From: Candidatus Saccharimonadales bacterium
GTDB taxonomy: Bacteria > Patescibacteriota > Saccharimonadia > Saccharimonadales > EFPC-124
NCBI GenBank assembly: GCA_035280845.1
Contig: DATEFB010000012.1
Location: 9,093-73,092 of the forward strand
DNA: 64,000 bases
Direction: 5' to 3'
Of this stretch, positions 13,890-63,278 are shown in pieces; position 1 is the first letter of the stretch; each line of letters starts with the position of its first letter. Both the position numbers and the translations under genes were made by a program. A model generated the notes under the pieces. That model had not been told where the DNA came from. It was given only the letters and a program-made list of their open reading frames with translations, and ran no database searches.

Positions 13890-13926
13890 GAAGCACTCTC
13901 TTACAAGAGATGGCAGGAGGCCCCAG

Positions 13927-14340
13927 ATGGTCATGGCGGAGGTGTACAGCATGACCAAGGTCGCGGCTTGGGACGAGCTTGTCCGAAGCGACCTGGTGAT
14001 CCATGGCGGTAACCTTCAAATCAAGACGACGTATGCCTACGTGCGTCGCAGCGAATTCGGCGGCATCAGGCCACCCGCAATCCATGCGGGCGTGCGTGTG
14101 CTGGCGGGCCCTGCGCCCTATGAAGCGGCACAAGGCATTCGTAAAGGCATGCGCCCTGGCGAACAGGTAGTACTGGTACGGTTCAGAGCCGTCAAACGCG
14201 GCTGGACTCTCCCCGTACTGCAAAGTGCTTTCTCGCTCGGCTTGGTGCCAGACGAGGAGCGCGATCCTCTACGACTTTCGTGTGTATGCATCCCCCACTA
14301 CCGACTTGGCATGCTTTTGTATGAGCGGCTCGCCGCCTGA
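13927..14340 (+). CDS. hypothetical protein (138 aa), high GC
   Basis: in-frame part of ORF 13774..14340 starting at ATG 13927 with SD GGAGG 6 nt upstream and a consensus promoter; convergent with sigma factor gene. Confidence 0.5.
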   Translation: MVMAEVYSMTKVAAWDELVRSDLVIHGGNLQIKTTYAYVRRSEFGGIRPPAIHAGVRVLAGPAPYEAAQGIRKGMRPGEQVVLVRFRAVKRGWTLPVLQSAFSLGLVPDEERDPLRLSCVCIPHYRLGMLLYERLAA

Positions 14341-14436
14341 AGAGCATGAGCGTGTGCGGACCTGGCGGGCCGGTGCACGCGCGGGGCCTTCTGCCCCGCA
14401 ACCAGAGTCCGTGCTGCTTGCGGCCCCTGGTTGCGG

Positions 14437-16632
14437 TTACCGCTTATTAAGTCTGGCCGATATTGTTCCAGAGAAATCACCAGCCGGACTGCTACTTAAC
14501 GCAGTTCCCGAAATGATAAAGCTGCCGCCGGTTGCCTCGTGTGCCACATGCTCTCCAGCGTCTTCCAGCACTTGGACGTCAATGTCTTTGCGCGCCTGGT
14601 AGCCGCAATAATCACCAACCGCGCCATACACATGCAACGAAGCCTGGTTGCGAGCCTGTGCTGCCGCATAATGACCGGCGTCGCCCATGACTTCCAAGCG
14701 CGCCATCTTGTTTGCCTTTGCTGCGGCATAGTTACCAACCGAACCGTTTACCTTCACAAGAGCCAATCCACCGATCTTGTACCCTGCATAATCGCCAAGG
14801 TTGCCATGGATCACCAGCTCACCGTGCTCCAACCCGGCACCCATATAGCCCAATTTGCCTTGGAGGCTTTCGGGGATTGTCAGTTCGACAAAGGTGTTGT
14901 CGTTCATGCGCTCGGCCAGCAGCCTTGAGAAAAGTTGGCCAACGCGGTCGAGGCTTATGTCGCCCATCCGCTCCTGCAAGTGCGTCACGAAATTCTCTAC
15001 CTCTGCATTCCAGAAGCCGGCAATATGGCGTACCGTCAGTGCCTCGCCCATCTGGGACTGCAAGGCTTCGACAAGCACCTTGGGGTATTCGGAAGCATGT
15101 CCAGCCTCGACGAATGACTGCTGGAAGCTGTATGCACCGGTTGTATAGAGGATATCTTTAAAACGAGCGGCGGTGGCCTCATATTCAATCAAAACCTGTT
15201 CGGGAGTTATACGGACGGGCTCATCCCAGGCCTCACCCGGATATGCCTGCCAACGGGCACGCGGCTCAGCGAGGCCACTGGCTGGCGGCTCATAACCGAG
15301 CGGCGCATCCCTGCCCAAGCGAATGGCTCTCGCACCTAATACGCGCTCAGTTTTTAGTACGGGAAAAGTCCTGGTGTGTACAGGCGCTTCGACCGATACG
15401 TCCAGGTTAAGGAATGGCTCGAGGTTACGGCTACGTGCGGGGTGCCGCAGCTTATCGAGCGTCTTTGTAAGGATCTGACGGACACGCTCCCGCGTTATGC
15501 CATATACCATTCCAACTTCATCGAGCGTGCGCTCAACGCCATCGGTAAGACCGAAGCGAAGGCGGATTACACCAGCTTCACGCTCGCTTAATGTCCCCAG
15601 GGCTTCAGCAATAACATCAACGCGCATGCGCTCCATAACAATATCCTCAATCGAAGCCGTATCTGTATCGGCGACAACTTCTTCCAAAGCGAGCGCGCTT
15701 ACCTCACCATCCACCTCGATCTCTTCGTCGGCAGCACCAAAACTTACCAGATGATCAATAAAAATCGGATCACGGTATTTGTCCCACTCCTGGAAATTAG
15801 CCAGCTCCTCAGGGGTGCGACCAGCGTCGTTGTCGGGATCGTACATGGCCGACTGCATTTCTTCGACGCGGTTTATAGGAATATACAGGCCTGGCTTCTC
15901 GTACGCCTTAACATGCTTGGCCAGTGCGCCACGCAGGCCATTTATAGCATATGAACGGAACCGCACCGGCTTACCGATGTTGTCGCCCCGCGTATGGACC
16001 ATGCCGGGTTTAAAATTGCGCACAGCCTTAACAATTGCTTCGTTTACCACCTGTACGCGCTCGTCGTAGTCGGCATAGGGCGAGCGAAGACGCGTCATAT
16101 CACCAGGCGCCCATGAGTAGTCCGATCCCTGGATGTGCATTTTGGTCGAGCGCGGTTGCTTGCGTGGCTTAACACCAGCATCGTCGGTTTCATCGGGAAC
16201 CCGGCCCATGCCCGGCCGTATGTTCATAGACAGTCGGGCAAGGTACGTGGCGTTACGCAAATTACATTCGATGAGGACACGTTCGGCTTCGCGGCCGGCG
16301 TCGAATCGGGCACGAAGTGCGTCAAGCTGCTGAAGGTCACGCTTGAGCGGTCGCTTTGCCACTTCGACCTTCTTCTCAAGTTCTTCAAGAAGTGCCGCTG
16401 CCGCCAGCCCATCCTGAATAACAGCAGCGAGCTCGTGCTCCTGTTCAGCAGTCAGATACGTTGTACGGCTGCCCGTATGTTCGGCAAGCCTGTCGCCCAT
16501 GACTTGTAGGTAGTGTTCGCTGGGTGATCCTTTCTCGTAAAGAGTCCACTTAACTGCCGTCTCGTCGGCTTCGTCGGAAGCGGTGCGCATTATAGGATCC
16601 CAGGGATCAAAGTCCTGTGTTTCGTACGACAT
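14437..16632 (-). CDS. RNA polymerase sigma factor, sigma-70 family (RpoD-like) with ~325 aa C-terminal extension containing GXGXG-type beta-helix repeats
   Basis: 731 aa; region 1.2/2.1 (LTAEQEHELAAVIQDG, LIECNLRNATYLARL), region 2.3-2.4 (FRSYAINGLRGAL), region 4.2 (LSEREAGVIRLRFGLTDGVERTLDEVGMVYGITRERVRQILTKTLDKLRHP) ending near aa 405; then ~20-residue repeats GNLGDYAGYKIGG / GSVGNYAAAKANKM / GDAGHYAAAQARNQ / GAVGDYCGYQARKD. Confidence 0.8.
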   Translation of the reverse strand: MSYETQDFDPWDPIMRTASDEADETAVKWTLYEKGSPSEHYLQVMGDRLAEHTGSRTTYLTAEQEHELAAVIQDGLAAAALLEELEKKVEVAKRPLKRDLQQLDALRARFDAGREAERVLIECNLRNATYLARLSMNIRPGMGRVPDETDDAGVKPRKQPRSTKMHIQGSDYSWAPGDMTRLRSPYADYDERVQVVNEAIVKAVRNFKPGMVHTRGDNIGKPVRFRSYAINGLRGALAKHVKAYEKPGLYIPINRVEEMQSAMYDPDNDAGRTPEELANFQEWDKYRDPIFIDHLVSFGAADEEIEVDGEVSALALEEVVADTDTASIEDIVMERMRVDVIAEALGTLSEREAGVIRLRFGLTDGVERTLDEVGMVYGITRERVRQILTKTLDKLRHPARSRNLEPFLNLDVSVEAPVHTRTFPVLKTERVLGARAIRLGRDAPLGYEPPASGLAEPRARWQAYPGEAWDEPVRITPEQVLIEYEATAARFKDILYTTGAYSFQQSFVEAGHASEYPKVLVEALQSQMGEALTVRHIAGFWNAEVENFVTHLQERMGDISLDRVGQLFSRLLAERMNDNTFVELTIPESLQGKLGYMGAGLEHGELVIHGNLGDYAGYKIGGLALVKVNGSVGNYAAAKANKMARLEVMGDAGHYAAAQARNQASLHVYGAVGDYCGYQARKDIDVQVLEDAGEHVAHEATGGSFIISGTALSSSPAGDFSGTISARLNKR
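14503..14850 (-). repeat. intragenic ~60 nt periodic DNA repeats encoding the GXGXG beta-helix units of the sigma factor tail
   Basis: recurring gc.gc.g.ataat.acc...cc elements (gtagccgcaataatcacc / gctgccgcataatgacc / gctgcggcatagttacc / accctgcataatcgcc). Confidence 0.5.
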
Positions 16633-17232: not shown

Positions 17233-17517
17233 TCAGCCCACGTCGTAGTCCCCTCTAGAGGCGCTAGCCGTGAAGCACGCCCATCCCGCAGCTGTGAACA
17301 CAATGCCGCCCGAATCAGCTTGCTTGCGCACCACAGCACCGCCATCGGGCAGGTCGGCCACCAGAATGGCCTCACCGCCAGACTCCGGGCTTGTCGTGTT
17401 GGTCCAGGTGAGTGACGCGAGGTCAATGTCGGGCGCTTCCGCCAAGTCGGCGTAGATGTGCAGACCCCTGTCCTGTTCCATGGCTCTCCATCCAACGTGC
17501 ACGGCGGTGTGCCGCAT
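17233..17517 (-). CDS. questionable small ORF (94 aa) in a ~65% GC patch between tuf terminator and rpsJ promoter; possibly gene remnant
   Basis: ORF only; no convincing SD; compositional outlier. Confidence 0.2.
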   Translation of the reverse strand: MRHTAVHVGWRAMEQDRGLHIYADLAEAPDIDLASLTWTNTTSPESGGEAILVADLPDGGAVVRKQADSGGIVFTAAGWACFTASASRGDYDVG

Positions 17518-23526: not shown

Positions 23527-24053
23527 TTAGGGCTTGACGTCACCGCCAGGCGGCGCATCGAATCGCGGATCGTCGGGCTTGCCGGGCATGCCCGAACCGT
23601 CGGCCGGCTTCTGCGGGCCTCCGGCGCCGAACAGGTTGAAGAAGGCCATCGGGTCCTGCGTCAGAGCCAGTTCGGCCAACTTGTGCTTGGCGTCGTAGAG
23701 GCTCTGCAATCCGTCGGCCAGCGCCGTGTAGGCCGCCTGCCGCTTCTGCTGGGCAGTGATCCGCGTCGCAAGGAGCTGCCGGCGAGGTGCCGAAACCCCT
23801 TGGTCGGCCAGCTCGGCCTGCAACAGGGCAGTCTCAGCCGCCGCCACCTCGGCCTCAGCCCGAGCCACGGAGATCCGAGTCTCGATCTCCTGCAGCTCCA
23901 GTGCGGCCTGGATCTTGGTGGCCTTGCTCTGCTGGGCGCCCTGCTCGGCCAGACCGGACATCGCGCCCTGCATCTGGCTCATCATGGCCGCCAGCTCCGG
24001 GGGCAGATCGCCCTCGGAGAATGGGAACATGCCGCCGAAGGGCGGGCCCTCGT
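23527..24053 (-). CDS. hypothetical coiled-coil protein, ~68% GC
   Basis: ORF 23527..24207 trimmed to TTG at ~24051 preceded by AAGGAG; Ala/Gln/Glu-rich helical core, Gly/Pro-rich tail. Confidence 0.45.
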
Positions 24054-24200
24054 CTTCTGCCAACTCACTCACTCCTTCGTGTGTGTAACGGGTGTCCTTA
24101 TTTCTACCACACATCTGAAACGAAATCCATACACTTCCATCAGTTTGACCATGACGCACATCCGTATTACAGTATGTATACCACGAGAAAAGGGGTAAAG

Positions 24201-24503
24201 ATGTCACTGGCTATCGCCGACCTTCGGGAAGGCAACCGTATTGCTGTGCGGTGTGCGCATGGGAACATCCTCGCGGTCGTACAGGTCAGCCGCGCGCCCA
24301 GCCGTTTGCGGCCAAGCATGAGGGTGACGGGCACTGCCTTGTTGCCATCGGGCTCCAGCGGCGAACAGGTCTTCAACAGCCTCAAGCTGCTGGGCATGCC
24401 ATGGGGTGTGTCGTGGCGGACCATGAGCCACTTCCGAGGGGCCTCAACCACACCGCCACCAGCCAAGTGCGGGTGCGATTTCTTCCTTCCGACGCCCCTG
24501 TAA
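24201..24503 (+). CDS. hypothetical protein (100 aa), divergent partner in GC-rich cassette
   Basis: ATG 24201 with SD AAGGGG 5 nt upstream and AT-rich promoter-like region (TTGACC 24145-24150, TACAGT 24168-24173); same frame as ORF 23787..24503. Confidence 0.4.
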   Translation: MSLAIADLREGNRIAVRCAHGNILAVVQVSRAPSRLRPSMRVTGTALLPSGSSGEQVFNSLKLLGMPWGVSWRTMSHFRGASTTPPPAKCGCDFFLPTPL

Positions 24504-24570
24504 TTCGGGGCTGTGGTGAGCGTAGTGCGCCGGCCAGTCTGGCGCACTACGCACTCAATCTTGCATAAAC

Positions 24571-24603
24571 CAAAAACACCCGCGAACGTGCGGGTGTTTT
24601 TTG
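24571..24603 (-). terminator. rho-independent terminator after rpoC (ACACCCGC gaacgt GCGGGTGT, A/T flanks)
   Basis: perfect 8 bp stem 15 nt after the rpoC stop. Confidence 0.7.
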
Positions 24604-24617
24604 GGACTTAAGAAGGT

Positions 24618-32685: not shown

Positions 32686-32740
32686 TGTAATAAAATTAGC
32701 ACTCTAGCGTCAAGAGTGCTAATTTTCTCAGAACAACAGT

Positions 32741-34030
32741 TTATTTCTTGCTGTTGATGTCGACAAGGCGGTCAACGGTTTTTTCGGTCAGCATGCGGTT
32801 TGCAATATCACGACGGGTTTCAGGCGTGTCCAATTGCTTGGCCACGTCAGGGGCGTTCCCGTAGCGCTGCAGCATTTCCTGCAGGCGAACATCAAGTTCT
32901 TCGCGGCTGACTTCAATACCCTCAGCCTTGCTCAGTTCAGCAAGTGCCAAGCCAACTTGTACGCGGCGCTCGGCCTGCGGGCGAAGCTCTTTAGTGTGCC
33001 ATTCTTCTTTGGTCAGCTTTTCCTGTTCCAGGTACTGGTCAAGGGTAATGCCGCGGTACATAAGATTCTGAATAAAATCGCGCTCAATGCTGGCGATCTG
33101 GTCGTCAACCAGTACATCGGGGGCAGGAACATGGCTTCCCTTCACTAGCTGTTCAACCAGCATGTCTTTCATTTTGTCGACAGCTTCGCGCTCTTTTTGT
33201 TCGGTCAGCTCGCGAGTGACGTCGGCTTTCAGCTCAGCCAGTGTCTTGAATGGGCCGGCCTTGGCCGCGAATTCATCATTCAGGTCCGGCTTCTGGACGC
33301 CTTTAACCGACTTAACGGTCACCTTAAAGGTAACTTTTGCGCCAGCCAGTGGTTTGTGGTGGTAGTCCTTGGGGAATGTAAGCGGCAGATCGAACACGTC
33401 GCCAGTCTTTTTGCCAACAAGGCCTTCTTCGAAGCCAGGAATAAAGGTTCCCGAACCAAGCGTCAGCGGGTAATCTGTGCCGCTTGCGCCCGGGACTTCT
33501 TTGCCGTCCTTGTCGGTACCTTCAAAGTCCATAACAACCTCGTCGCCGTCTTGGGCTGCACGGTCAACGTCTTCTTTGGTGGCCATGCTGACTTGCAGGC
33601 GTTCGATAACTTCATCAATCTCGGTGTCACCAATCTTAACGGCGTCCTTGGTAGCTTTCAGTTTTGTGTAATCGCCAAGCGTAATAGCCGGGATAACTTC
33701 CACCTCGGCTGTGTATTCCAGTGACTCGCCGGGAACGTACGAAACGACGTCTACTTTCGGACGGTCAAGTGGTACGATTTTTTCAGCATCAAAAACATCG
33801 ACAGCAGTCGTGTTTACTGCGTCTTCCAGGACTTCCTGGCTTAGGTGGTTGGGGTCGATCTGCTTGGCTGCAACCTGCACAGGCACTTTGCCCGGGCGGA
33901 AGCCGGCGGCCTTAACGTTTTTTGCCAGACGGGCAATCGTTTTTTGTTGGATAGGTGCGAGGTCGGCCGCGGTCAGCGTGACAGTCATGTGCACCTGGGT
34001 GTCGGATGGTTTCTTAATCACATGTTTCAT
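32741..34030 (-). CDS. tig: trigger factor
   Basis: ORF 32741..34117 trimmed to MKHVIKKP... (ATG 34028-34030); ribosome-binding N-domain, FKBP-like PPIase middle, C-terminal arm; -10-like TATACT 7 nt upstream (leaderless candidate). Confidence 0.85.
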   Translation of the reverse strand: MKHVIKKPSDTQVHMTVTLTAADLAPIQQKTIARLAKNVKAAGFRPGKVPVQVAAKQIDPNHLSQEVLEDAVNTTAVDVFDAEKIVPLDRPKVDVVSYVPGESLEYTAEVEVIPAITLGDYTKLKATKDAVKIGDTEIDEVIERLQVSMATKEDVDRAAQDGDEVVMDFEGTDKDGKEVPGASGTDYPLTLGSGTFIPGFEEGLVGKKTGDVFDLPLTFPKDYHHKPLAGAKVTFKVTVKSVKGVQKPDLNDEFAAKAGPFKTLAELKADVTRELTEQKEREAVDKMKDMLVEQLVKGSHVPAPDVLVDDQIASIERDFIQNLMYRGITLDQYLEQEKLTKEEWHTKELRPQAERRVQVGLALAELSKAEGIEVSREELDVRLQEMLQRYGNAPDVAKQLDTPETRRDIANRMLTEKTVDRLVDINSKK

Positions 34031-34163
34031 ATCTGATAGTATACCGTGGTTCAGATTTGTTTGCGAGCGTAAGCACAATTCAAAAAGCGAGGAGCCGGGA
34101 ACGTGTGCGCAGTGCACACGTTCCCGACAACTCGCTTACAGTGCCCGGGGGCACGAATGCCGG

Positions 34164-34589
34164 TCAGTTCCGCGGCGCGAAGCCCCGGAAGATGTCGGCG
34201 ATCAGCCAGGAGTTGTTGCTGCCGTGGTGGAGCACGAAGCCCCGACCGATGCCGAACAGCACCACCCCGAGAATGGTCCAGCCGACGCTCCACACCCAGG
34301 CGTAGCCCGAGCCGATGGCCCAGGACAGCGCCCCGATGGGGATCGCGGCAGCCAGTGCCAGGCGCGGGAAGTACCCGCCGAGAGCGGCGCCCACCAGGTA
34401 GCCGAAGCTGACGATGGCGAGGCCGAACAGCGCCACACAGGCGCCGACGCCCATACCCCAGGCCGCACTTCCGCTCGCAACGCCCACGATGGGGCCAGCG
34501 AACAGCGCGACCGGCAGGGCGATGACCCAGCCAAACGTGCGTACGCCCGAGCCGTGAAGGTCACGGCTGCGGCGGTATCCGTAGGACAT
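34164..34589 (-). CDS. hypothetical small membrane protein (4 TM), ~68% GC
   Basis: 141 aa, Gly/Ala-rich hydrophobic helices. Confidence 0.5.
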   Translation of the reverse strand: MSYGYRRSRDLHGSGVRTFGWVIALPVALFAGPIVGVASGSAAWGMGVGACVALFGLAIVSFGYLVGAALGGYFPRLALAAAIPIGALSWAIGSGYAWVWSVGWTILGVVLFGIGRGFVLHHGSNNSWLIADIFRGFAPRN

Positions 34590-34598
34590 GTCTGCCTC

Positions 34599-35330
34599 CT
34601 AAAGAGCGGTGGTTGCGCCGGCGCGGTGCTCCGCCTCGGCGAAGATTTCGGCGAGCGGGATGCCCAGCTCCAGGGCGATCATGATGACCAGCCTGGAGGC
34701 GGTGCCGATACCCCGGTCGGGGTCCCGGACCTCGACCGGCTTGTCGGCGTCCTCGGACGGCGTGAGCTGCGTGGCCAGTTCGGCCAGCAGCCGCGCGACG
34801 TGCGGCGACTGCGGCTCCTGCGCGGCGGCGTACACCGTCAGCGCGGAGTGCGCCTCCTGCAGGATCCGGGTAGCCCGGTCCTTCAGCGGCCGGTCGTGTG
34901 CCTTCGCCTCGCGCGCCTTAGCGGCACGCTCTTTGCGAAGGTTCCACTCAGCGACACCGACGACACTCACGAACTCGCAGTTCTCCTCCTTGGCACCGAA
35001 CGCCGAGAAGTGGTAGAGCCGCATGTTGAGGGTCGGCTGCGGCAGCTCGCCGTCCACCACTTCGGAGGACGGGCACACTGCCACGAGGTACCCACCCCAG
35101 TGGAACTCGGCGGCCATCTGCGCGTGAGCGGCGACGACGGTCAGGTCGGGACGCAACGCCTCCACCTCTTCGCGGAGGAGCTGCACGAATGCCTCTCCTG
35201 CCCCGTTGTTGGCGGCGTCGTTGGTCATCCCATGCCAGTCCGCCATGACGGCGACCGACTTGGGCTCACCACCCGTGGCGACCGCAGCAAAACGAGCAGC
35301 GGCGGCACGGTACTTACTGGCGTCGAACAT
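34599..35330 (-). CDS. hypothetical protein with C-terminal HTH-like segment, high GC
   Basis: 243 aa; C-terminus RGIGTASRLVIMIALELGIPLAEIF resembles a helix-turn-helix. Confidence 0.45.
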   Translation of the reverse strand: MFDASKYRAAAARFAAVATGGEPKSVAVMADWHGMTNDAANNGAGEAFVQLLREEVEALRPDLTVVAAHAQMAAEFHWGGYLVAVCPSSEVVDGELPQPTLNMRLYHFSAFGAKEENCEFVSVVGVAEWNLRKERAAKAREAKAHDRPLKDRATRILQEAHSALTVYAAAQEPQSPHVARLLAELATQLTPSEDADKPVEVRDPDRGIGTASRLVIMIALELGIPLAEIFAEAEHRAGATTAL

Positions 35331-35393
35331 CTAGACCTCCGTGGTCAGACAACGAATAAACCAATGATATTATACAACAAAAGTAAAAATATA

Positions 35394-41868: not shown

Positions 41869-41869
41869 T

Positions 41870-41953: not shown

Positions 41954-41973
41954 AGAATGTGGGTGCAGGTGCG

Positions 41974-42002
41974 ATTATATCGAAAATGACAGATGTTGTA
42001 CA
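41974..42002 (-). promoter_or_regulatory. promoter for tRNA-Leu: -35 TGTACA, 17 bp, -10 TATAAT
   Basis: plus-strand attata 41974-41979 and tgtaca 41997-42002; ~20 nt upstream of tRNA 5' end. Confidence 0.5.
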
Positions 42003-42042
42003 TGGGGTGGGCCCGAGACCTCGCGGCCTCGGGCAGCACCAT

Positions 42043-42801
42043 TCAGTTGTGGACGCCGTTCAGTAGCACAGCACCTTGTTCGGCCGTGTATCCGGCGTGG
42101 GCCAGCGCGGCTCGGGCGTTAGCGTAGTCGCGCGATTCGGGATCACGGCCCGCGAGCTTCTTCTTGAGGCACGCGGCAATGTCTTCATCGCCAATATGTG
42201 CCTGTGTCCTGGACTCGAATCCCGCGCCAGTGTGCTGCGCCAGGTCCTCGATCGGGATATTACAGACCTCTTTATGGCCGTCGGCCACAAGGGGCACCAC
42301 AATACAGAAGAGGTGCGTGACCAGATCGATCCGCGGCGGCCCTGTGGTACGGGCGCCAAACCACAGTCCGTGCTGCAGCAGCCGTGCGTATCCGTGGCAC
42401 AGGAACGGCTCGTCGTCGAGAGTCCGCAGGAGCCGCCGACCCTCACGCAGAGCAGTGAGGATGGCTGGATTACCGGCCCCGAACACCACCTCGACCGCTA
42501 TTGCCAGCTTCTGGCTGGTGGGCACTTCGCCGATGTTGCAGAGTTCGTTGACTCTCTTGTACGCCGTTTGCTTGAGACGGTGGTGGTCGGCCGGGTGCTG
42601 CTGGTTGAGCCCGTACAGTTCACCACGACGCGCGCGAAGGCGTGTAATCGTGTCGTCTATCTCCTCCATCTCGGTGCGGTATGCAAGGCCAATGGCTGCC
42701 GAGGCACTTACCTCGGCGGCGGCTGCAGCTACAGTCTCGTCCAACAGGGCGAGCGCAGAAGCGCGTTCGGCACGAATTGCCTCCATAGCTCGTCTGGGCA
42801 T
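42043..42801 (-). CDS. hypothetical protein (252 aa), ~66% GC
   Basis: minus-strand ORF with SD AGGGGAGA 4 nt before ATG; overlapping plus-strand ORFs judged GC-driven artefacts. Confidence 0.5.
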   Translation of the reverse strand: MPRRAMEAIRAERASALALLDETVAAAAAEVSASAAIGLAYRTEMEEIDDTITRLRARRGELYGLNQQHPADHHRLKQTAYKRVNELCNIGEVPTSQKLAIAVEVVFGAGNPAILTALREGRRLLRTLDDEPFLCHGYARLLQHGLWFGARTTGPPRIDLVTHLFCIVVPLVADGHKEVCNIPIEDLAQHTGAGFESRTQAHIGDEDIAACLKKKLAGRDPESRDYANARAALAHAGYTAEQGAVLLNGVHN

Positions 42802-42859
42802 AGTCTCCCCTAACTGTTTGGCACTAAAACAAGAGTAAAATAAATAACCAAAAAGTCAA

Positions 42860-45415
42860 CTACATAGTGAACCAGGCCGAGCCATTGTTATATACCTGTA
42901 CCGAGCCCCATGCGGTATTGATAGTCCGCGAGCCCGCGCCGTCGATAGTCTGACCGCTTGTTCCCTGAATGGTAATGTTACTGGCGCCGGCGTTCCCTGT
43001 TTGGTCCTTAATGATGTACGTTTGGTTCGTATTGCCAGCCGCAGCCAAAGGTAACGTTACGACACGTGGCGCGGTCAGTGTTGTGTAAGCAATAAGGTAG
43101 TCACTGGCGACGGCAATGTAGTTAATGTCGGCGACACCCCGGCGGTTAATAGCCATACCTCCGCCGAGGCTTAGAGTAGCAGTAGGCGCAGCCGTACCAA
43201 TGCCAACATTGCCGCCGGTAAACCATGTGTTGCCACTCGGCGCCACTTTTGCCACGCTCGCGCTCGGTGCAGGCACTGTGCCCGCAGTAGAAGCACCACC
43301 GGTATCGGTAAAGCTGTTTGTGGTAGCGGTGTAGTACACGTTCTCGCCGCCCGGACTAGTGCCGCGATATATCCTGTACGATCCAGCACCGGCAACGGCC
43401 GTCCAGCTTAAGTTGACCGAACCACTGGGGCCAGTAACGACAGCGTTTACTTCTGAGCCGGCCACAGACGTGCCGCCAGCACCATCGAGCGAGATAACCT
43501 GGTAATAATATGTGCCGCTCGCTAGCGTTCCACCGCTCCCAACAGGAGTTGCCGAAAGCCCGCCAGGTGGCGACATACGAATGTTGATAGTGCCGCCATT
43601 AACCGTTAAAGCTTGGTCGGGGCTAGCCGTTAAAATGCCCACGCGGTTGCTTTGGTTGTCGACGTTAAAAATGGTGGTGCTTGCGGCGTTTTGCACTTGC
43701 AATACATTCGATGCGTTGTTGACTGGCTTTACAAGGACGTTCGAAGTCAGCATGGCGTTTGCAAACACGTAGTTACTGCCCTGGCTGTAGCGCAACGTAC
43801 CAATAATAGTTCCGGTAAACGGTGTAACAGTTGCCGAAAGGTTGGCCTCGATCTGGATTGGCGTCAGTACGTTACTGCCATATACAACGCCGACGGTAAT
43901 CGGGTTGTTAACGCCTGAGCCAAAAACGGTGTTGCCTGCGTGCATGCGAACTGTAACCTCTTGGGCATTTGCCAGTGCCAACGCTGTTCCACCGGTGTTG
44001 TTAGCCTGAATGTCCAAAACAATGTCTTTATTCACGCCACTGTTAATTTGTCCGATTGCCACAACCGGGTCACAGCTTGTGGTTACGCCAATAACTTCAA
44101 AAGCCTGCACGTTGGCGTACACGTTGCTACATGCGTTATCAATAACCAGACCGCCGAACGGCACGCCTACACCCGTACAGCTATCGACAAACAGGCTCGT
44201 GTAATGGATCTGGTTACTCTGGTTTAAATGCACGCCCGTCTTACAGCCAATGGCATACACAAAATTCACCACGCAGTCGCTCCCGGCATTGTGGTAAATG
44301 CCGCGGTAACCACCTTTTATAAACACGCCGCCAATTTCGAAGTGATACCCAAGGAGCGCCAGTCCATCTTGCCCTCGCAGCAGCCCGGTCGACTCAATTG
44401 CGGTACCCACATGCCACAGCCGCACATCGCCTAAGTAAATATGCGCCTGCTGGTTCGAGGTAATGCCAGCCTGGATGCCTGCGCCATGCAGACATTCAAC
44501 AAGAATCCGACGCACTACGGCATAGGGCTGCACCACCACGCACGGAGCAAAGCGGTCGGCCAATGCATTCACAATAATACCCAAGCCGTCAAAGATAACG
44601 CCAGACGGAATGGAAACCTGGGACGTGACAATATAAATCGCCTGTGTCGGGCCGGCTGGCAACGTAACAACACCATTACCCATGCCCATTGGCTGGTTTG
44701 GGTTGGTCATGTAGCCAGCAATAAATTGCAGCCCGGTTGCGGCGGCGTTGACGGCGTTCTGCAGTGCGGCCGTGTTGTCGCTGCCGTACACCATAACGCC
44801 GTTGCCGGAGTTGGTTGTAATGCCGGCTGTCGACGCAAGCGTTACCTGAGTGGCCGACTGCACAGATTGAATGGTTGTGATTGTACCCGCGCTCCCGCTG
44901 GTATATACAATGGCTATTTTGCCAACATCCGCCGAACTAAACGTACCGGCGCTTGTGGTAACAGTAGAACTTCCCGATGCCGCCACAACGCTGTTTACGC
45001 GTTTGCCGTCGCCAAGGGCGCCGTAATCGCGGGCGTTAATCTCGACATCACCCTTACTGACCAATGCCGATGTATCAACGGTAGGGTTGCCCCACTTCAC
45101 ACCCGCCGCCTGCGCACTGTCTGCCACAAGTGCCTGCCCGTCTGTGCCGACACCAAGGCGCTGTACGTTCGAGGCACCAGCCGCGACAAACAAATCGCCC
45201 TTGGCAGTTGCCGCAGTTTTATCGATTTTAGAGGCGAGCGCACCCTCGAGGCCATTCACCTTACTCTGGGCAATATTGGCCGCAGCAGAAATATGAGCAT
45301 CTGCAACAATTCCTGAGCGCAACGATCCATCTGACTTATGGACTTGTGCTAAGAAATCGTTGAGGACTTGTCCCCAAATACCATCATCGCCACCAGGACT
45401 TGGAAGCCGCGACAT
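42860..45415 (-). CDS. large beta-helix protein: pectate-lyase-superfamily (tailspike/depolymerase-like) domain + FN3-like + tail-fibre-like C-terminal domain
   Basis: 851 aa; NARDYGALGDGKRVNS (Pectate_lyase_3-type start), Gly/Thr/Ser/Asn-rich beta-helix body, SVNLSWTAVAGAGSYRIYRGTSPGG (FN3-like), C-terminal GGNVGIGTAAPTATLSLGGG motif seen in phage tail-fibre domains; no obvious signal peptide. Confidence 0.65.
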   Translation of the reverse strand: MSRLPSPGGDDGIWGQVLNDFLAQVHKSDGSLRSGIVADAHISAAANIAQSKVNGLEGALASKIDKTAATAKGDLFVAAGASNVQRLGVGTDGQALVADSAQAAGVKWGNPTVDTSALVSKGDVEINARDYGALGDGKRVNSVVAASGSSTVTTSAGTFSSADVGKIAIVYTSGSAGTITTIQSVQSATQVTLASTAGITTNSGNGVMVYGSDNTAALQNAVNAAATGLQFIAGYMTNPNQPMGMGNGVVTLPAGPTQAIYIVTSQVSIPSGVIFDGLGIIVNALADRFAPCVVVQPYAVVRRILVECLHGAGIQAGITSNQQAHIYLGDVRLWHVGTAIESTGLLRGQDGLALLGYHFEIGGVFIKGGYRGIYHNAGSDCVVNFVYAIGCKTGVHLNQSNQIHYTSLFVDSCTGVGVPFGGLVIDNACSNVYANVQAFEVIGVTTSCDPVVAIGQINSGVNKDIVLDIQANNTGGTALALANAQEVTVRMHAGNTVFGSGVNNPITVGVVYGSNVLTPIQIEANLSATVTPFTGTIIGTLRYSQGSNYVFANAMLTSNVLVKPVNNASNVLQVQNAASTTIFNVDNQSNRVGILTASPDQALTVNGGTINIRMSPPGGLSATPVGSGGTLASGTYYYQVISLDGAGGTSVAGSEVNAVVTGPSGSVNLSWTAVAGAGSYRIYRGTSPGGENVYYTATTNSFTDTGGASTAGTVPAPSASVAKVAPSGNTWFTGGNVGIGTAAPTATLSLGGGMAINRRGVADINYIAVASDYLIAYTTLTAPRVVTLPLAAAGNTNQTYIIKDQTGNAGASNITIQGTSGQTIDGAGSRTINTAWGSVQVYNNGSAWFTM

Positions 45416-45569
45416 GAATTACTCTTCTACCCCCGCTTACATCATAAGCTTTTTACTCGACTAATGGTAGGCGAAGCTCCCTCGCATGTCAATCTTATAA
45501 TAAGTGCAAAATCTGTAACGGAGTGTGTCGGAGTGACCATGACTGGCCACCCCGACACACCCTTGAGCC

Positions 45570-47177
45570 TTACGAGCGGGCATGCCGCCCTCGGCTTCGT
45601 ACCCTCTTGGTTTGTGGTTTCGGTTCCTGGACTTGTGACTGTTTCTCCGTCACCGGCCCAGTTACCGCACGCAGCGTTACCGCCACGTACACCAGACCGG
45701 TGAGGAGGTTGGGCAGGAAGTCCCACAGACTCCAGGCTGCCATGTAGTACGCCGACCCGCCGACCCAGATGAGACCGGTGCCGAAGCCCCAGCCCCCAAT
45801 GAGTGTGCGGGAGTACTTGATCCGGCGACTCGTGGAACCCTTCTTTGAGCCCGTTGCGCTCCATCCTAGCCGCTTGTCCCGCAAGATGTCCATGAGCGCG
45901 AACGCGTGTGCCCATCCGTAGACGAGCTTCACCGCCCACGCGTCGATCCCATAGCGACACCTGTGCCATGCGGGGAAAATCACCATGTTATAGATCAACG
46001 ATGGCAAGATCCACAGATAGTTTTCGAGCAGCACCTGATCGGGGAATACCAGCAGCAACACGATCGGGATCGTCGGACCCACAATCGTGAAGATGGCGGT
46101 GTGCAGGTAGTAACAGAACCCCGATAGATAGCAGCACCTCGTGCGGAAGCTCATCTTGGCAGCCCAGAACTTGCGGCTACCCAGAAGGGACATCGACCCC
46201 ATGCACCACCGATATTGTTGCTGGATAAATTTCACCAGCATATCAGGGCACTCTCCCGTTGCCAGGTTGATGGGGAGGTAGAACAATCCCCAGCCTGTCT
46301 TCGAGAGGTAACGCAGGTCGAATCCCGTGTGAACGTCCTCGGAGTGGCCGATCAACGTCGGACCGCCGCCGTTCTCCTCTAGCGCTTCGCGCCGGTAGAT
46401 GGCATTGGTGCCAACGCAGATCGCTCCGTCGAGCTGATTGCGTGACTGCTGAATGAAGCGGTAGAACAGTTCCTGTACTGCTCCCGCCCCGCTTTGGAGC
46501 CAGTTCTGAACGTCCCTTCGGACGTGGAAGTACTGCGGAGACTGAATGATACCGAGCCGGGGGTCTCCCTCCAGGTACGGCAGCATCTCCGTCAGATAAT
46601 CCTCCCGCGGGCAGAAGTCCGCGTCGAACACTAGCAGGTACTTGCCGGGGCGTTCCTTCTTTCGGCTGATTAAGAACCCGAACTTCAGGTTCCCCGCCTT
46701 CTTGAACCACCCACGGATGTTCTTCCCCCCGTAAATCGGCACTGGGGGCCGTGTGTGATACTCGAAGTTGGCACCAGCACGCCGGAATTCGGCCACCAGT
46801 TCGGCGGCCTCCGGCGACTGTCCGTCATCCAGCACGTAGGCAGTGATCTCCCCGCCGAGAAGCGTGTAGGCCTTCATCATCATGGCAACATAGTGCCACG
46901 TATTCCGAAGGGTCCTGGTCGGCTCACCGGCGATCGGCAGCATGACGTCAATCGGGGGAAGTCCTTCAACAATGGCCTTGGCAAGCCACGCAGCCACCTT
47001 TACCCGGTGAGCGGCAACATCGAAGCTGGAAGCTCCGAAATTGACGGCCAACGAGATGAAGTAGTACGCAACCGTGAAGACCAAGAACAACGAGTACGCC
47101 GACACCAGCCATGGATTGAGCAAAAGGAACTTGCCCTGGCTAATGATCAGACACGTAAAGCTGACGAGCGACACCAC
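45570..47177 (-). CDS. processive family-2 glycosyltransferase (cellulose-synthase-like), multi-TM, GTG start
   Basis: 535 aa; DVMLPIAGEP, LVFDADF (DxD), GHSEDVHTG (TED-like), QQQYRWCMG (QxxRW) motifs plus 6-8 TM helices. Confidence 0.8.
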   Translation of the reverse strand: MVSLVSFTCLIISQGKFLLLNPWLVSAYSLFLVFTVAYYFISLAVNFGASSFDVAAHRVKVAAWLAKAIVEGLPPIDVMLPIAGEPTRTLRNTWHYVAMMMKAYTLLGGEITAYVLDDGQSPEAAELVAEFRRAGANFEYHTRPPVPIYGGKNIRGWFKKAGNLKFGFLISRKKERPGKYLLVFDADFCPREDYLTEMLPYLEGDPRLGIIQSPQYFHVRRDVQNWLQSGAGAVQELFYRFIQQSRNQLDGAICVGTNAIYRREALEENGGGPTLIGHSEDVHTGFDLRYLSKTGWGLFYLPINLATGECPDMLVKFIQQQYRWCMGSMSLLGSRKFWAAKMSFRTRCCYLSGFCYYLHTAIFTIVGPTIPIVLLLVFPDQVLLENYLWILPSLIYNMVIFPAWHRCRYGIDAWAVKLVYGWAHAFALMDILRDKRLGWSATGSKKGSTSRRIKYSRTLIGGWGFGTGLIWVGGSAYYMAAWSLWDFLPNLLTGLVYVAVTLRAVTGPVTEKQSQVQEPKPQTKRVRSRGRHARS

Positions 47178-47459
47178 TGTAACTACCAGAGGACGCCGCT
47201 TGACATAGCTGTATTTCTCGCGGTCCGTCGGAGGACTCGGCAGGTTTCCCTGCAGTTCTGCGTCGGGTGGGGGTGGACGAGGGCTGGACCCCCTACCGGT
47301 CGCGACTTTCGTGACGAACCCCCTTCCTTCTCAGAACCAAAACCACTTAGGTACGAGTCAGGGCGCCTCTTTCGAAGCGCCCTAGACCGTAGACCATTTT
47401 ACAGTATTTTTGTCAAAAAAGTAAGTAGCTAGTGCATTTCTAACCAATAAAGACAGCCC

Positions 47460-48002
47460 TCATTTGGACTGTCTTTGACGGTAGAATGCCAGCGCCGCAT
47501 CTCCGTAATATCTATTGTCCACCACAACAACTCCATTAACGGTCGGCGCTGAGCCTCTACCTGGGTATGATAATACCATAAGCCCGTTTGGGTTTAAATG
47601 ACGAATTAACAACGAAACTGTGGATAACTGCAGATCCTGGTACGGTGGGTCTGCAAGGATAAGATCGAAGGTAGCGTCAGGGTTTTGTTCGCTCCACATG
47701 CGGCAGTTTGCTTTTACAAGCTGCACTCTGTCTTCGACCCCAAGTGACTCAATATTTTTCTGGATAACCTTCTGCGCAATTCGGTCGCGCTCAAGGGCAA
47801 GGCTGTTTTTTGCACCCCTGCTTACTGCTTCGAAGCTGACCGCTCCACTGCCCGCGAACGGGTCGAGCACGGTCTTGCCCTCGGCATCAATCATATTAAA
47901 TAGAGCGCCACGCATACGTTCGCCCATAGGATGGGTCGCGTCGGAGCCGGGCGAATCCAGAAACCTGCCCCCGAACTCACCCGCGATCACCCGGATGCGC
48001 AT
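47460..48002 (-). CDS. rsmD: 16S rRNA (guanine966-N2)-methyltransferase RsmD
   Basis: 180 aa; LDPFAGSGAVSFEAVSRGA SAM motif and LILADPPY motif. Confidence 0.85.
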   Translation of the reverse strand: MRIRVIAGEFGGRFLDSPGSDATHPMGERMRGALFNMIDAEGKTVLDPFAGSGAVSFEAVSRGAKNSLALERDRIAQKVIQKNIESLGVEDRVQLVKANCRMWSEQNPDATFDLILADPPYQDLQLSTVSLLIRHLNPNGLMVLSYPGRGSAPTVNGVVVVDNRYYGDAALAFYRQRQSK

Positions 48003-48815
48003 TTACTTGCCCTCAGCCCGCTGCAGTGCTTCGTACCAGGCAAGGGCGATTGTTTTTACAATGATCGGCGCCAGTTGCTCGCGTGTTTCGCGGGCCAGCT
48101 GCCGGGTCCAGCCTTTATGGCTAAAGCGGTCATACATTTTAAGCTCGTAAATCTCGCGAGCAGCCTCCTGGAATACCTGCACCGTGCCCACTTTAAGCAC
48201 CCGGCGGCATTCTGCCTTGGTTGGGTATCCACGCTTTAGACGCAAAGGAGCAATAATGGTTGCGACGCCAAATTCGTAGAGCCCGTGGGTTGTCATAACG
48301 CCTTTTGCGCCCCACATTTCCCAGTTTTTGGCCAATACTTTAGACGGCTTGTCGCCTTCACCCTTAATTATGAGCTTGTCTTTAATGCTTGTGCGGGTCT
48401 CGAGGCCTTCACCCCTCAGTTCTTCCAGGCGCTCTGCAAGCGGAAAATGGTGCGCCGGTGTTAGACCGTCGGTAATTGCATGCGCCTGCCAGGCTGCCTC
48501 GAACGCAGCTTTTTCGCGTTCACCTTTTTTAAGGGCGGCGGTCAGGTTTTTACTGTGACGTTCAATCATGCGTAGCAATTCGGTGTCTCGCTCGTCCATT
48601 GGGTCATAATAATGCCATGGTTCGTCGCGGGCAGGCGACTTGCTTTTAATGCCGTCGGGCCCGTTTTTGCCCTCGAACTGCAGGATTTCTTTATTGGTCG
48701 GAAAATAAGTGCCTGGCGCCACAGATTCGAGCGCCTTGCGTGCCACACGGTCAAGCTTCTGGTGCGCGCCAATAATGCGGCCAGAATGTTTACGGAGGGT
48801 TGTTCCTGAGTACAT
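48003..48815 (-). CDS. zinc-dependent phospholipase C family protein (cytoplasmic, no signal peptide)
   Basis: 270 aa; EPWHYYDP and HAITDGLTPAHH motifs parallel the Zn-ligand blocks (HFYDP, H..D..QP.H) of Bacillus PC-PLC family. Confidence 0.5.
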   Translation of the reverse strand: MYSGTTLRKHSGRIIGAHQKLDRVARKALESVAPGTYFPTNKEILQFEGKNGPDGIKSKSPARDEPWHYYDPMDERDTELLRMIERHSKNLTAALKKGEREKAAFEAAWQAHAITDGLTPAHHFPLAERLEELRGEGLETRTSIKDKLIIKGEGDKPSKVLAKNWEMWGAKGVMTTHGLYEFGVATIIAPLRLKRGYPTKAECRRVLKVGTVQVFQEAAREIYELKMYDRFSHKGWTRQLARETREQLAPIIVKTIALAWYEALQRAEGK

Positions 48816-57887: not shown

Positions 57888-58388
57888 ATGGACAGGCTTA
57901 TGGCGCGCGCAATCCAGCGAGCGGCGCTTGCCGGCATCGCCGACGCCTTTCTGAACATGTACTACATGAGTGATCTCTGGGCAGGATACCTGAGCGGCGG
58001 CCACCAGGAAGATTATGAGGTCGAGAAAAGCGCGAGAGCGACGTGGACGATCCACGTCAGCCACTTTGGCGGCGGGAGGATCCACCTCTCGTGGTCAATC
58101 CGCTTCAAAGATACGTCGCTCGGCGGCGTACACCTCATGGCAAATGAGGACAACCTCATCGGCCTCGCCTGGAACCGTGGTGAATACCTGTTCGAGGGCA
58201 ATGACATGAGCCTGGCATACCTGCAGTTCGACATCGAAGCCGACGACGAGCCGCTCGAAGAAGACCTCTTCGTCCAGGTGTTCGCGGCGCTTCAGCTCGA
58301 ACTGTACCGCTACCTGCGGCGGCACCGCATGCCAATGCACTCGCCCAGCAGCAAGTTGCTCGCGCCCATCCGTCCGCGGCACACCTAG
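57888..58388 (+). CDS. hypothetical protein (166 aa)
   Basis: ORF with perfect -10 TATAAT (57853-57858) upstream; followed by hairpin 58389-58420. Confidence 0.45.
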   Translation: MDRLMARAIQRAALAGIADAFLNMYYMSDLWAGYLSGGHQEDYEVEKSARATWTIHVSHFGGGRIHLSWSIRFKDTSLGGVHLMANEDNLIGLAWNRGEYLFEGNDMSLAYLQFDIEADDEPLEEDLFVQVFAALQLELYRYLRRHRMPMHSPSSKLLAPIRPRHT

Positions 58389-58502: not shown

Positions 58503-58901
58503 TCAGGCCACGAGCGCCGCCGGGACGCGGTTGTCCAGGAGAGCAGCGATCTGCTCGGTCTGCGGGCCGTAACCGTCCTCCAGCTCCTCGTCCCAGATCA
58601 TGGGGCCGTTGCTGAAGGGGACGAAGACCCCACCGATGCGGACGATCTCGTGGATGGTGGCCAGCCGGTCGAGCAGCTCGTACGAGCCGCTGAAGACCTT
58701 CTTGGCGCGCTCGCCGGCGTACTGGCCCACCGACACGAAGGTCAGGGTACCGGCCCGCAGGCGCTGCGTCAACTCGGGGTCGACGCCCTCGTACGTGCCG
58801 TACAGCTCGTAGTACGCCCACCGCTCCATGGCCGCCTCGTAGGCGTCCTGGGTCAGAACGGGCGTAACGCCACTGTTGGCGTCGCTACGGTACAACGTTG
58901 C
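58503..58901 (-). CDS. hypothetical small acidic protein (133 aa), ~66% GC
   Basis: ORF 58503..59003 trimmed to ATG 58899-58901 preceded by AGGAG 6 nt upstream; followed by terminator hairpin 58448-58472. Confidence 0.5.
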   Translation of the reverse strand, partial: ATLYRSDANSGVTPVLTQDAYEAAMERWAYYELYGTYEGVDPELTQRLRAGTLTFVSVGQYAGERAKKVFSGSYELLDRLATIHEIVRIGGVFVPFSNGPMIWDEELEDGYGPQTEQIAALLDNRVPAALVA

Positions 58902-59095
58902 CATTTCGAGCTCCTCATTCCACTGTTCCACCCAGACTGGGTGGGATTCGGGTGCGGACCTCGGCGTTTCCATCATGCAGAATCGCCAAGAGTATACGGC
59001 CACGTAAGCCGCATGCTTTTGGCGATTCTATTTTGTAAGGACTCTACCTTAAGTAGATGATAATATTTTACAATAAATATACAAATAAGTCAATA

Positions 59096-60079: not shown

Positions 60080-60082
60080 GTA

Positions 60083-62572: not shown

Positions 62573-62719
62573 CTATATTCTACCTTCCAAGTATCAAGTG
62601 TGTACATTCAGTATAAAAAACTTAGCACTCGCACGTCAAGAGTGCTAATAATATTTGCTAAAAATTAGTAATTATTATAAAGTATATACGCCCATTATAC
62701 CGTTCCGAGAGGAGTGGGC

Positions 62720-63205
62720 ATGCAACCCGACGAGTATCCGCTGGCAAGCGACCGCAAGTTGGAACTTGCGCGTCGGCTCGGGATCGAGATCACCGAGGGC
62801 ATGACGCCCCGTGAACTCAATATCCTCATCAGCAATGCTCCGGCCACCGACAAGCAGCGCGAGTTCGCCCAGATCCTCGGCGCTCCCCTGCCCGAGTCGG
62901 CCACCTTCAGCCAGGCATCGCGCCTGCTGGACGTCCTCGTCCCGCTGAAGTGCCAGATCTCCCTGTCGACATCCGGCTGGGAGGTCGGCGACGTGCTGGC
63001 CTGGCGCGGTGATTACTTCCGGATCGTCAAGATCCTGACGAAGTTCGACTACCGCATGTACATGAAGCCGGTCGACCTGGAGCCCGGCGGTGGCGGCGAC
63101 CCCGTAAGGGTCATCAACCGCAAGGCGCCTCAGGTCCAACACTACCCGATCACCCTGGAGGGCGACGCCCACAAGGTGGATCTGGAGACATGGAGGCCTC
63201 ACTGA
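62720..63205 (+). CDS. hypothetical protein (161 aa), ~65% GC
   Basis: ATG 62720 preceded by GAGGAG 5 nt upstream; same frame as ORF 62714..63205. Confidence 0.45.
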   Translation: MQPDEYPLASDRKLELARRLGIEITEGMTPRELNILISNAPATDKQREFAQILGAPLPESATFSQASRLLDVLVPLKCQISLSTSGWEVGDVLAWRGDYFRIVKILTKFDYRMYMKPVDLEPGGGGDPVRVINRKAPQVQHYPITLEGDAHKVDLETWRPH

Positions 63206-63278
63206 TGTGCTGGGCCAGTGCTGAGACAGGCAGCGCTCACGCTTAGCGTGCAAGCGGGTTCAATGCCCGCCTGGCCCA

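Follow-up and report, generated by a model that had tools for sequence, protein, structure and literature searches.

Small genes of foreign, GC-rich composition between housekeeping genes of a Candidatus Saccharimonadales chromosome

The 64 kb stretch of DNA analysed here (the window) comes from a metagenome-assembled genome (MAG) of a soil Candidatus Saccharimonadales bacterium, a member of the Candidate Phyla Radiation (CPR; assembly GCA_035280845.1, contig DATEFB010000012.1), and carries a run of housekeeping genes, for the most part on the minus strand, between which nine GC-rich patches with small genes are set, here called islets ISL1 to ISL9. Gene coordinates are those of the public ENA gene calls for the metagenome contig ERZ27257114 k141_1618136 (74 kb, of which 64 kb form the window). 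Among the GTDB species representatives, RpoB of Saccharimonadales and Saccharibacteria MAGs is 69–75% identical to that of the window, and the NCBI record of an endonuclease/exonuclease/phosphatase (EEP) protein of the window is a Candidatus Saccharimonadales MAG. The backbone comprises secY, the ribosomal protein operons, tuf, fusA, rpsL/G, rpoBC, clpP, tig, hisS and rsmD, and further recG, tyrS, a class A penicillin-binding protein gene, radA, clpB and nusA. Backbone GC is 0.52–0.55, with a GC content at third codon positions (GC3) of 0.49–0.65 in its genes; the window mean is 0.544. The 12 to 13 small genes of the islets have a GC of 0.59–0.70 and a GC3 of 0.70–0.92, with only ISL1 lower in GC3 (0.66). 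A sliding window gave GC peaks of 0.60–0.70 at every interval for which an earlier note, made from the sequence alone, had listed a distinct patch; the list overlooked the gene hyp166 and includes the weak ISL1, and the other patches stand.

To account for amino-acid composition, GC3 of each islet gene was compared with a simulation of its protein written in the synonymous codon usage of the backbone housekeeping genes, and the excess is given as z. Ten genes reach z 3.7–9. Codon usage is thus not uniform after amino-acid correction, and the earlier claim of a distinct composition survives. The deviations of hyp137 and hyp82 are weaker. The pgl gene (37777–38481) has a GC of 0.61 but also a GC3 of 0.61, and its high GC is due to amino-acid composition only.

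ISL1 (13927–14340, plus strand) is an ENA gene call for hyp137, a 137-aa basic orphan protein without a Pfam match, and is a marginal member (GC 0.605, GC3 0.66, z 1.8). ISL2 (17233–17481, minus strand) lies in the tuf|rpsJ gap and encodes hyp82, an 82-aa acidic protein resembling DUF397/BldB (GC 0.64, GC3 0.73, z 2.6). ISL3 (23527–24063, minus strand) occupies the rpoC|rpsL slot with cc178, a 178-aa Ala-rich, coiled-coil-like protein (GC 0.69, z 7.8; GC1/GC2/GC3 0.73/0.49/0.85). Joined to it, in the cc178/rpoC gap, is a GC-rich stretch of 554 bp without a gene called by ENA (24064–24617), with a GC of 0.57 overall and 0.62–0.70 across 24250–24550. A putative 99-aa open reading frame (ORF) in this stretch (24204–24503, plus strand) has a GC3 of 0.77 and no Pfam match; the counterpart of the stretch in the related locus L093 (loci and proteins of other genomes are designated L and P) measures only about 200 bp.

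The tig|hisS slot holds ISL4 with two genes on the minus strand, mem141 (34164–34589; GC 0.70, GC3 0.89, z 7.1), whose hydrophobic segments predict a 141-aa multi-pass membrane protein, and hyp243 (34599–35330), encoding a 243-aa Ala-rich orphan protein (GC 0.69, z 8.9; GC1/GC2/GC3 0.73/0.48/0.86). Directly downstream of mem141 is a hairpin (34085–34137, minus strand), an inverted repeat with 24-nt arms that are 88% complementary and a 5-nt loop. A 582-aa ORF (33711–35459, plus strand) runs antisense over the start of tig, mem141 and hyp243; we rejected it as a gene, since its GC1/GC2/GC3 pattern (0.71/0.52/0.64) marks it as a by-product of 70% GC DNA.

ISL5 consists of two genes. ISL5a (38574–39011, minus strand; GC 0.64, GC3 0.75, z 4.0) encodes a 145-aa protein with a TIR domain alone (PF13676, TIR_2, E 7e-9, 36.7 bits against a cut-off of 28), which matched nothing among the PADLOC models, PDB sequences and NCBIfam families. 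ISL5b (39151–39861, plus strand; GC 0.64, GC3 0.75, z 5.4) encodes the 236-aa EEP protein (PF03372, E 8.7e-9, 35.9 bits against a cut-off of 24.5, profile positions 2–225 of 225); PDB sequence searches added no function to the EEP or the TIR protein. Next to ISL5, a segment at 39965–41747 with RibD_C, AHSA1 and AraC-type genes deviates in the opposite direction (GC 0.48–0.52, GC3 0.51–0.56, z to −3.5). This low-GC outlier adjoins a tRNA-Leu gene (41870–41953, minus strand; ARAGORN and Rfam) and has a high-GC islet on either side.

The tRNA-Leu gene is the sole tRNA link of any islet and adjoins ISL6 (42043–42801, minus strand), which lies downstream of rsmD and encodes hyp252, a 252-aa orphan protein (GC 0.63, GC3 0.70, z 3.7). 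ISL7 (45570–47177, minus strand; GC 0.59, GC3 0.76, z 7.0) encodes a 535-aa membrane protein predicted to be a GT2 glycosyltransferase of the cellulose-synthase type: its GT2 domains score above the cut-offs (Glyco_trans_2_3, E 1.6e-15), and the CelA model matches with E 5e-34 and 117 bits against a family cut-off of 699. The ISL7 gene is missing in L087 from the gap between rsmD and the hyp252 homologue. Between ISL6 and ISL7 lies a gene of backbone composition for an 851-aa protein (42860–45415), which is also missing from the equivalent position in L087. Pfam and NCBIfam scans gave no match to this protein; the N-terminus shares 36% identity with that of an L088 protein with a weak DUF5907 Pfam match.

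Two genes share the hyp327|radA slot, hyp166 (57888–58388, plus strand; GC3 0.80, z 4.5), for a 166-aa orphan protein, and ISL8 (58503–58904, minus strand), for the 133-aa acidic orphan protein acid133 (GC 0.68, GC3 0.92, z 7.8). In the nusA|clpB slot, ISL9 (62720–63205, plus strand) encodes hyp161, a 161-aa orphan protein (GC 0.64, GC3 0.86, z 7.2). The N-terminus of hyp161 (62720–62930) has a short helical motif in two copies (ASDRKLELARRLG... and ATDKQREFAQILG...); four stretches of a metagenomic protein of 921 aa align with this region, and the motif would therefore be a reusable module. The descriptions of the earlier note, which spoke of a TIR-like, an EEP, a membrane, a coiled-coil and an acidic protein, hold for one protein each. 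PADLOC, PHROGs and NCBIfam scans added no function to the orphan proteins.

The deviation of the islets extends to individual codons. For arginine, the backbone uses CGC at 0.64 and CGG at 0.07, the islets CGC at 0.30 and CGG at 0.29. Proline moves from CCA to CCC and CCG (CCC from 0.11 to 0.36), glutamate from GAA to GAG (GAG from 0.38 to 0.73) and phenylalanine towards TTC (from 0.51 to 0.89). By codon likelihood, models of genomes with 62–70% GC fit the islet codon usage better than the backbone does, and the best fit of the strong islets is to loci of 65–70% GC genomes, from Actinomycetota and Chloroflexota alike. The GC-normalised dinucleotide distance to the backbone is 116 for the pooled islets, compared with 30 ± 10 (maximum 60) for length-matched backbone samples, and 149 for the six strongest islets, compared with 43 ± 15 (maximum 100); the signatures nearest to the islets are those of high-GC loci. 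Of the high-GC donor proposed in the earlier note, the foreign character of codon usage and dinucleotides is thus confirmed, but a donor lineage was not found.

The islet genes are compositionally foreign with sharp boundaries. High GC is confined to the ORF and a GC-rich 3′ tail (3′ spacers 0.55–0.73), and the 5′ spacers are AT-rich (GC 0.29–0.38). Flanking core genes have a GC3 of 0.56 in the 50 codons nearest the islets versus 0.60 elsewhere and show no gradient, for which reason we rejected a GC-biased process acting on the region as the principal cause. The AT-rich 5′ spacers noted earlier are present, but between 33.8 and 48.2 kb neither promoter-like matches (11, shuffled 7.8 ± 2.7) nor terminator-like matches (14, shuffled 16.2 ± 4) exceed the expectation from shuffled sequence.

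The slots of the islets are unoccupied in relatives at greater distance. In L005, tig directly adjoins hisS (in the window, mem141 and hyp243 lie in this gap), and 291 bp separate rpoC from rpsL; other cargo is found between rpoC and rpsL in L006 and L008, in the latter PAP2 and diacylglycerol-kinase genes (6538–7952). The order clpB-hyp327-radA is contiguous in L095, L099, L101 and L103, and in L101 and L104 no gene separates nusA from clpB. The hyp327|radA junction carries a pilin-like gene with an N_methyl motif in L104 (11023–11739) and a gene for an unrelated 308-aa orphan protein (h308, GC3 0.81) in L090/L091. Because more distant relatives show the junctions rpoC|rpsL, tig|hisS, hyp327|radA and nusA|clpB without interruption, we regard the patches as insertions, which agrees with the earlier description of genes wedged between housekeeping genes. 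As cargo of its own in these slots, L090 has GC3-rich orphan genes at 3115–4041, 9666–10106 and 10257–10592 (GC3 0.81, 0.78 and 0.71, backbone 0.55).

In closer relatives, of which no fetched locus covers tig|hisS, homologues of the islet genes are present in four slots. The read sets behind L089, L090 and L093 are SRR30711656, SRR13589006 and SRR24140722, respectively. The flanking proteins of these same-slot relatives are 86–98% identical to those of the window in L089, L090/L091 and L093 and 62–81% identical in L087; synonymous sites are diverged, with a synonymous divergence (dS) from 0.7 to saturation. At rpoC|rpsL of L093, the cc178 homologue P0019 is 52% identical, in comparison to 95% for RpoC and 98.5% for S12, and has a GC3 of 0.82, a dS of 0.88 and a ratio of nonsynonymous to synonymous divergence (dN/dS) of 0.45. 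The hyp166 homologue P0016, located between radA and hyp327 of L089, is 37% identical, in comparison to 92% for RadA, and has a GC3 of 0.71. Between clpB and nusA, L090 and L091 have the hyp161 homologue P0023 (39% identity, GC3 0.58). The hyp252 homologue P0011 lies in the rsmD/tRNA-Leu gap of L087, with a GC3 of 0.58 that equals the local backbone; the adjacent tRNA-Leu gene is kept there (10847–10934, 93% DNA identity). For ISL3, ISL6, ISL8/hyp166 and ISL9, the best matches were accordingly only in relatives and at the same loci, an outcome that the earlier note had named as refuting its acquisition from a high-GC donor.

Two families also occur at other positions. Homologues of acid133 are located next to radA, in the slot known from the window, in L086 (GC3 0.82), but in the dnaK/ftsX gap in L088 (GC3 0.70, neighbouring genes 0.36–0.55). 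A hyp243 homologue lies between a glutaredoxin gene and cobA in L092, in contrast to its tig|hisS position in the window; hyp243 homologues have a GC3 of 0.81 in L085 and 0.82 in L092. In every genome from which DNA was fetched (L085, L086, L088, L092 and L093), GC3 of the acid133, hyp243 and cc178 homologues exceeds that of the surroundings.

Homologues were searched for exhaustively with phmmer, using the seven orphan proteins in concatenated form against 1.84 billion representatives. Each of the seven belongs to a small family of proteins of the same length. Near-identical variants were found for hyp161 (94%) and cc178 (97%), and for acid133 (90%) in a word-indexed search; more distant family members are 26–57% identical. 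The hyp243 family comprises five clusters of 238–251 aa with 21 invariant columns, the hyp252 family seven homologous clusters, the acid133 family about 20 with conserved motifs, and the hyp161 family about 25, one of them annotated as Candidatus Saccharimonadales. An alignment profile search with acid133 in the word-indexed database returned only five proteins, none with an organism name. At least 169 proteins of about 235 aa are homologous to the EEP protein, with 49–65% identity, and those that carry an organism name are all from Candidatus Saccharibacteria, Saccharimonadales or Saccharimonas.

For six of the seven orphan families, relatives with retrievable context occur only in mid-GC contigs that belong to Saccharimonadales or resemble them, and no relative lies in a high-GC context; the actinobacterial best matches anticipated in the earlier note were thus not found. 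The families are restricted to mid-GC contigs, several of which are identifiable as Saccharimonadales via shared flanking genes, and the dinucleotide signatures of L088 and L092 are among the closest to the window backbone. The GARP/FYMINK ratio of the family members forms a continuum in which high-GC and mid-GC sources are not separated.

ISL2 is the islet for which the search pointed elsewhere. Its match to Pfam DUF397 (16.2 bits, E 0.013, positions 3–54 of 55) is below the gathering threshold of 24 bits. Its only non-self relative, P0065, is 46% identical over 69 aa (library-wide phmmer E 1.4e-4) and is a bona fide DUF397 protein (Pfam E 7e-23, 81 bits), encoded in L094, a 70.6% GC contig with small genes and a phage-type integrase. 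In ISL2, other residues stand in place of the cysteines that P0065 has in the aligned stretch. XRE-DUF397 pairs are a typical feature of Streptomyces, and a BldB-like family unique to filamentous actinomycetes has been described (PMC10364602). ISL2 resembles the XRE-DUF397 (BldB-like) proteins of Streptomyces (PMC10364602, PMC6262351, PMC10294661) in size and by the 46% identity, but differs from them in its sub-threshold score, its replaced cysteines and its location in a tuf|rpsJ gap of a CPR genome, where no XRE/WhiJ-type partner gene is adjacent, the neighbours being tuf and rpsJ. As judged by sequence, ISL2 alone among the islets appears to point to filamentous actinomycetes.

The islet proteins had no tblastn match in 50,697 phage records (INPHARED) or 72,556 plasmid records, and IMG/VR contained no relatives of acid133, hyp243 and hyp161, the three families scanned. 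The sole PHROG match was that of ISL2 to phrog_10815, a PHROG without assigned function (E 2e-4). No recombinase domain was among the Pfam annotations obtained for the window genes. No attC-like or shared inverted-repeat family was found at the islet ends, and no intI gene in the window. PADLOC gave no match for any islet protein, including TIR and the neighbouring EEP.

The islet genes are real genes, as is evident from invariant alignment columns, confident AlphaFold2 models and dN/dS values below 0.5. Compared with their positional homologues, the islet proteins have a dN/dS of 0.36–0.45 and are under relaxed yet purifying selection. The backbone-like gene hyp197 (GC3 0.61) has a dN/dS of 0.20 and is 42% identical to its counterpart in L089. 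AlphaFold2 modelled acid133 with a mean predicted local distance difference test score (pLDDT) of 94.6 and hyp243 with 86.3. Foldseek gave no significant match for the acid133 model in PDB or BFVD and none for the hyp243 model in PDB.

We propose, with about even confidence, that the islets represent a clade-specific flexible gene pool of high-GC origin whose members were laterally inserted and persist and are exchanged or refilled at recurrent slots. Single- or two-gene accessory insertions would have entered the Candidatus Saccharimonadales chromosome at operon boundaries, namely rpoC|rpsL, tig|hisS, hyp327|radA, nusA|clpB, tuf|rpsJ and the position downstream of rsmD. The islet DNA would have evolved in, or derived from, a background of approximately 65–70% G+C, and ORF-sized pieces would then have been placed behind resident AT-rich spacers. 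Insertion or replacement would have been repeated at the same slots from a high-GC pool holding the same families. Entry probably took place by DNA uptake and recombination, and the genes may be expressed from the upstream AT-rich spacers. The TIR, EEP, GT2, membrane and DUF397-like proteins suggest that islet proteins may act in host interaction, at the envelope or in conflict. Gene exchange within the phylum has precedent: the transfers detected in 125 genomes of aquifer Patescibacteria were mostly between Patescibacteria (PMC12455944).

Several points weigh against this proposal. The high-GC source is deduced from composition, and for six of the seven orphan families no member was located in a genuinely high-GC genome. 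The positional homologues of hyp161, hyp252 and hyp166 have a backbone-like GC3 (0.58, 0.58 and 0.71), in contrast to 0.86, 0.70 and 0.80 in the window. Together with the saturated synonymous sites, these homologues imply that a single old import with subsequent amelioration fails for the window copies; re-import or replacement must therefore be assumed. Neither direct repeats nor a shared boundary motif were found at the islet ends, and no integrase either. The families of TIR, GT2, mem141 and hyp137 were outside the homologue search, the DNA context covers one to three members per family, and the tentative taxonomic placement of L088 and L092 is based on similar dinucleotide signatures and weak links between proteins.

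The explanation favoured in the earlier note, that each islet is a separate and fairly recent capture from the high-GC actinobacterial host of the epibiont, appears unlikely to us. Its strengths lie in composition and in ISL2: the GC1/GC2/GC3 values of cc178 and hyp243 resemble those of genes from a genome near 70% GC before any amelioration, Corynebacterium, Pseudonocardiales and Actinomadura loci have the dinucleotide signatures that come closest, and ISL2 is DUF397-like, with its relative in an integrase-bearing contig of 70.6% GC and with a BldB-like family said to be unique to filamentous actinomycetes (PMC10364602). Cultured Saccharibacteria do have actinobacterial hosts (PMC11659515). 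However, Chloroflexota loci match the composition about as well as actinobacterial loci, the exhaustive phmmer search left six of the seven families without a match in a high-GC context, phage and plasmid records contain no matches, relatives carry homologues in the same slots, and the EEP family occurs across Saccharibacteria. Only ISL2 keeps a link to actinomycetes, while the remaining families with context, like EEP, point to Saccharimonadales or to contigs that resemble them. We favour the view that most islets were not recently taken from a sequenced actinobacterial host; they form small families otherwise found only in related epibionts, often in the same slot. Fairly unlikely, too, is a so far unrecognised mobile system, peculiar to these Saccharimonadales, that would carry the islets as cargo, such as a high-GC phage, a plasmid or a cassette-like element; it would target operon boundaries and deliver members of the same families again and again. 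The recurrence of families at the same slots and elsewhere (acid133 in L086 versus L088, hyp243 in the window versus L092), the GC3-rich family members across genomes of 48–57% GC and the variable slot content (hyp166, acid133, h308, a pilin-like gene or nothing) would fit such a system, but no recombinase is encoded in the window, attC-like or other common boundary repeats were not found, PHROG matches are limited to ISL2, neither INPHARED nor, for acid133, hyp243 and hyp161, IMG/VR contains relatives, and a 70% GC replicon in a 54% GC host would be unusual.

A decidedly unlikely alternative is that the islets are native, fast-evolving Saccharimonadales genes whose GC was raised in place, by GC-biased gene conversion at hot spots or by release from codon selection. 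Homologues occurring only in relatives, several of them in the same slot, the fast protein evolution (dN/dS 0.36–0.45) and a GC3 that ranges from 0.58 to 0.92 within families at roughly constant GC1 and GC2 are what such a process would leave, and window hyp161 exceeds its L090 counterpart mainly at GC3. Against this stand the flanking core genes, in which GC3 has no gradient, the AT-rich 5′ spacers (0.29–0.38), intergenic DNA that gives no hint of a GC-rich neutral equilibrium, the equally fast-evolving hyp197 with its backbone GC3 of 0.61, a dinucleotide signature that departs strongly from the resident one, and the slots that are empty in more distant relatives. Since the source is a contig of a metagenome assembly, the patches might also be chimeras of high-GC reads spliced into a CPR contig. 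We consider this extremely improbable and rejected it: L003, from a separate assembly of another sample, is 100% identical to 40478–48237 and thereby covers ISL6 and ISL7 with their junctions, so that no assembly artefact is involved there. Moreover, positional homologues occur in unrelated data sets, and each patch comprises a complete ORF and fits exactly between genes that are intact.

The proposal of a flexible gene pool can be taken further, to a picture that we regard as doubtful. Fixed slots between essential genes of one soil Saccharimonadales clade would be refilled repeatedly with members of a few orphan families. These would be drawn from a pool that has yet to be sampled (about 70% G+C) and that could be mobile DNA of the actinobacterial host or a dedicated element shuttling between host and epibiont. 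High GC would then be the standing mark of a channel of gene exchange between the two, and the proteins would be host-interaction or conflict factors with folds new to PDB.

By comparison with a definition of laterally acquired islets, deviant codon usage, a deviant oligonucleotide signature and a site that is empty in relatives were all found here, and an identifiable donor lineage was not. Like the single-gene transfers and small islands of Patescibacteria (PMC12455944), the islets are small lateral insertions in a streamlined CPR genome, and the predominance of transfers between Patescibacteria in that study agrees with the distribution of the families here; unlike them, they share a strongly high-GC composition, several recur at the same junction in relatives, and there is no donor-recipient pair. 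Small-scale lateral acquisition in CPR genomes is already known, and the islets are a well-documented further example. Integration hot spots of bacterial flexible genomes hold variable cargo between conserved core genes, the textbook case being O-antigen and capsule loci with atypical GC. The islets are likewise fixed in position, with conserved flanks, variable or absent cargo and an atypical composition without the expected decay. In contrast, their cargo is one or two small orphan genes, their composition deviates upward, and flank recombination is putative.

Phage morons, known from lambdoid phages, are additional genes inserted between conserved ones; their composition is deviant, and each brings its own promoter and terminator. 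The islets resemble them in being small, single genes whose composition is foreign, preceded by an AT-rich spacer, ending 3′ in GC-rich DNA or a hairpin and set between conserved neighbours, but lie in cellular housekeeping operons, have only the weak phage-family match of ISL2 and no excess of promoter and terminator matches over chance. Integron cassettes are comparable in that islets are small, usually of one gene and often orphan, but the islets are without attC-like repeats, an array or intI in the window and are scattered over 50 kb. A classical genomic island or integrative element differs in its integrase or transposase and flanking direct repeats, none of which was found for the islets. 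ISL5a shares the TIR domain with TIR anti-phage systems such as Thoeris, but neither a defence-system model nor a partner gene was matched by PADLOC.

Gene acquisition and the genes for association are little understood in Saccharibacteria, whose cultured members are obligate epibionts with actinobacterial hosts. The islets provide a candidate list of about a dozen genes of foreign composition under selection in at least four recurrent slots; two of the genes, acid133 and hyp243, have confident predicted models without a match to a solved fold. Host-like composition is no evidence of host capture here, because homology places most of the genes within the epibiont lineage. It is puzzling that GC3 stays high in families apparently restricted to Saccharimonadales. 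If identified, the source pool could reveal the host or a route of gene exchange.

Some features of the backbone are worth recording. The gene for L30 is not found between rpsE (3715–4314) and rplO (3224–3715); the absence of L30 is a known CPR trait. A gene for a 266-aa alpha/beta-hydrolase (2358–3158) lies inside the ribosomal protein operon, between rplO and secY. Downstream of rpsJ, with several hypothetical genes between it and the L3 operon, a 731-aa sigma-70 family protein is encoded (14437–16632), with the conserved region 4, long extra N- and C-terminal regions and one weak NCBIfam match, to the MzaA anti-phage sigma factor. Perfect CIRCE operators (TTAGCACTC-N9-GAGTGCTAA) are located just upstream of clpP (32695–32721) and clpB (62621–62647), which suggests that the Clp genes of this CPR genome are under HrcA-type heat-shock control.

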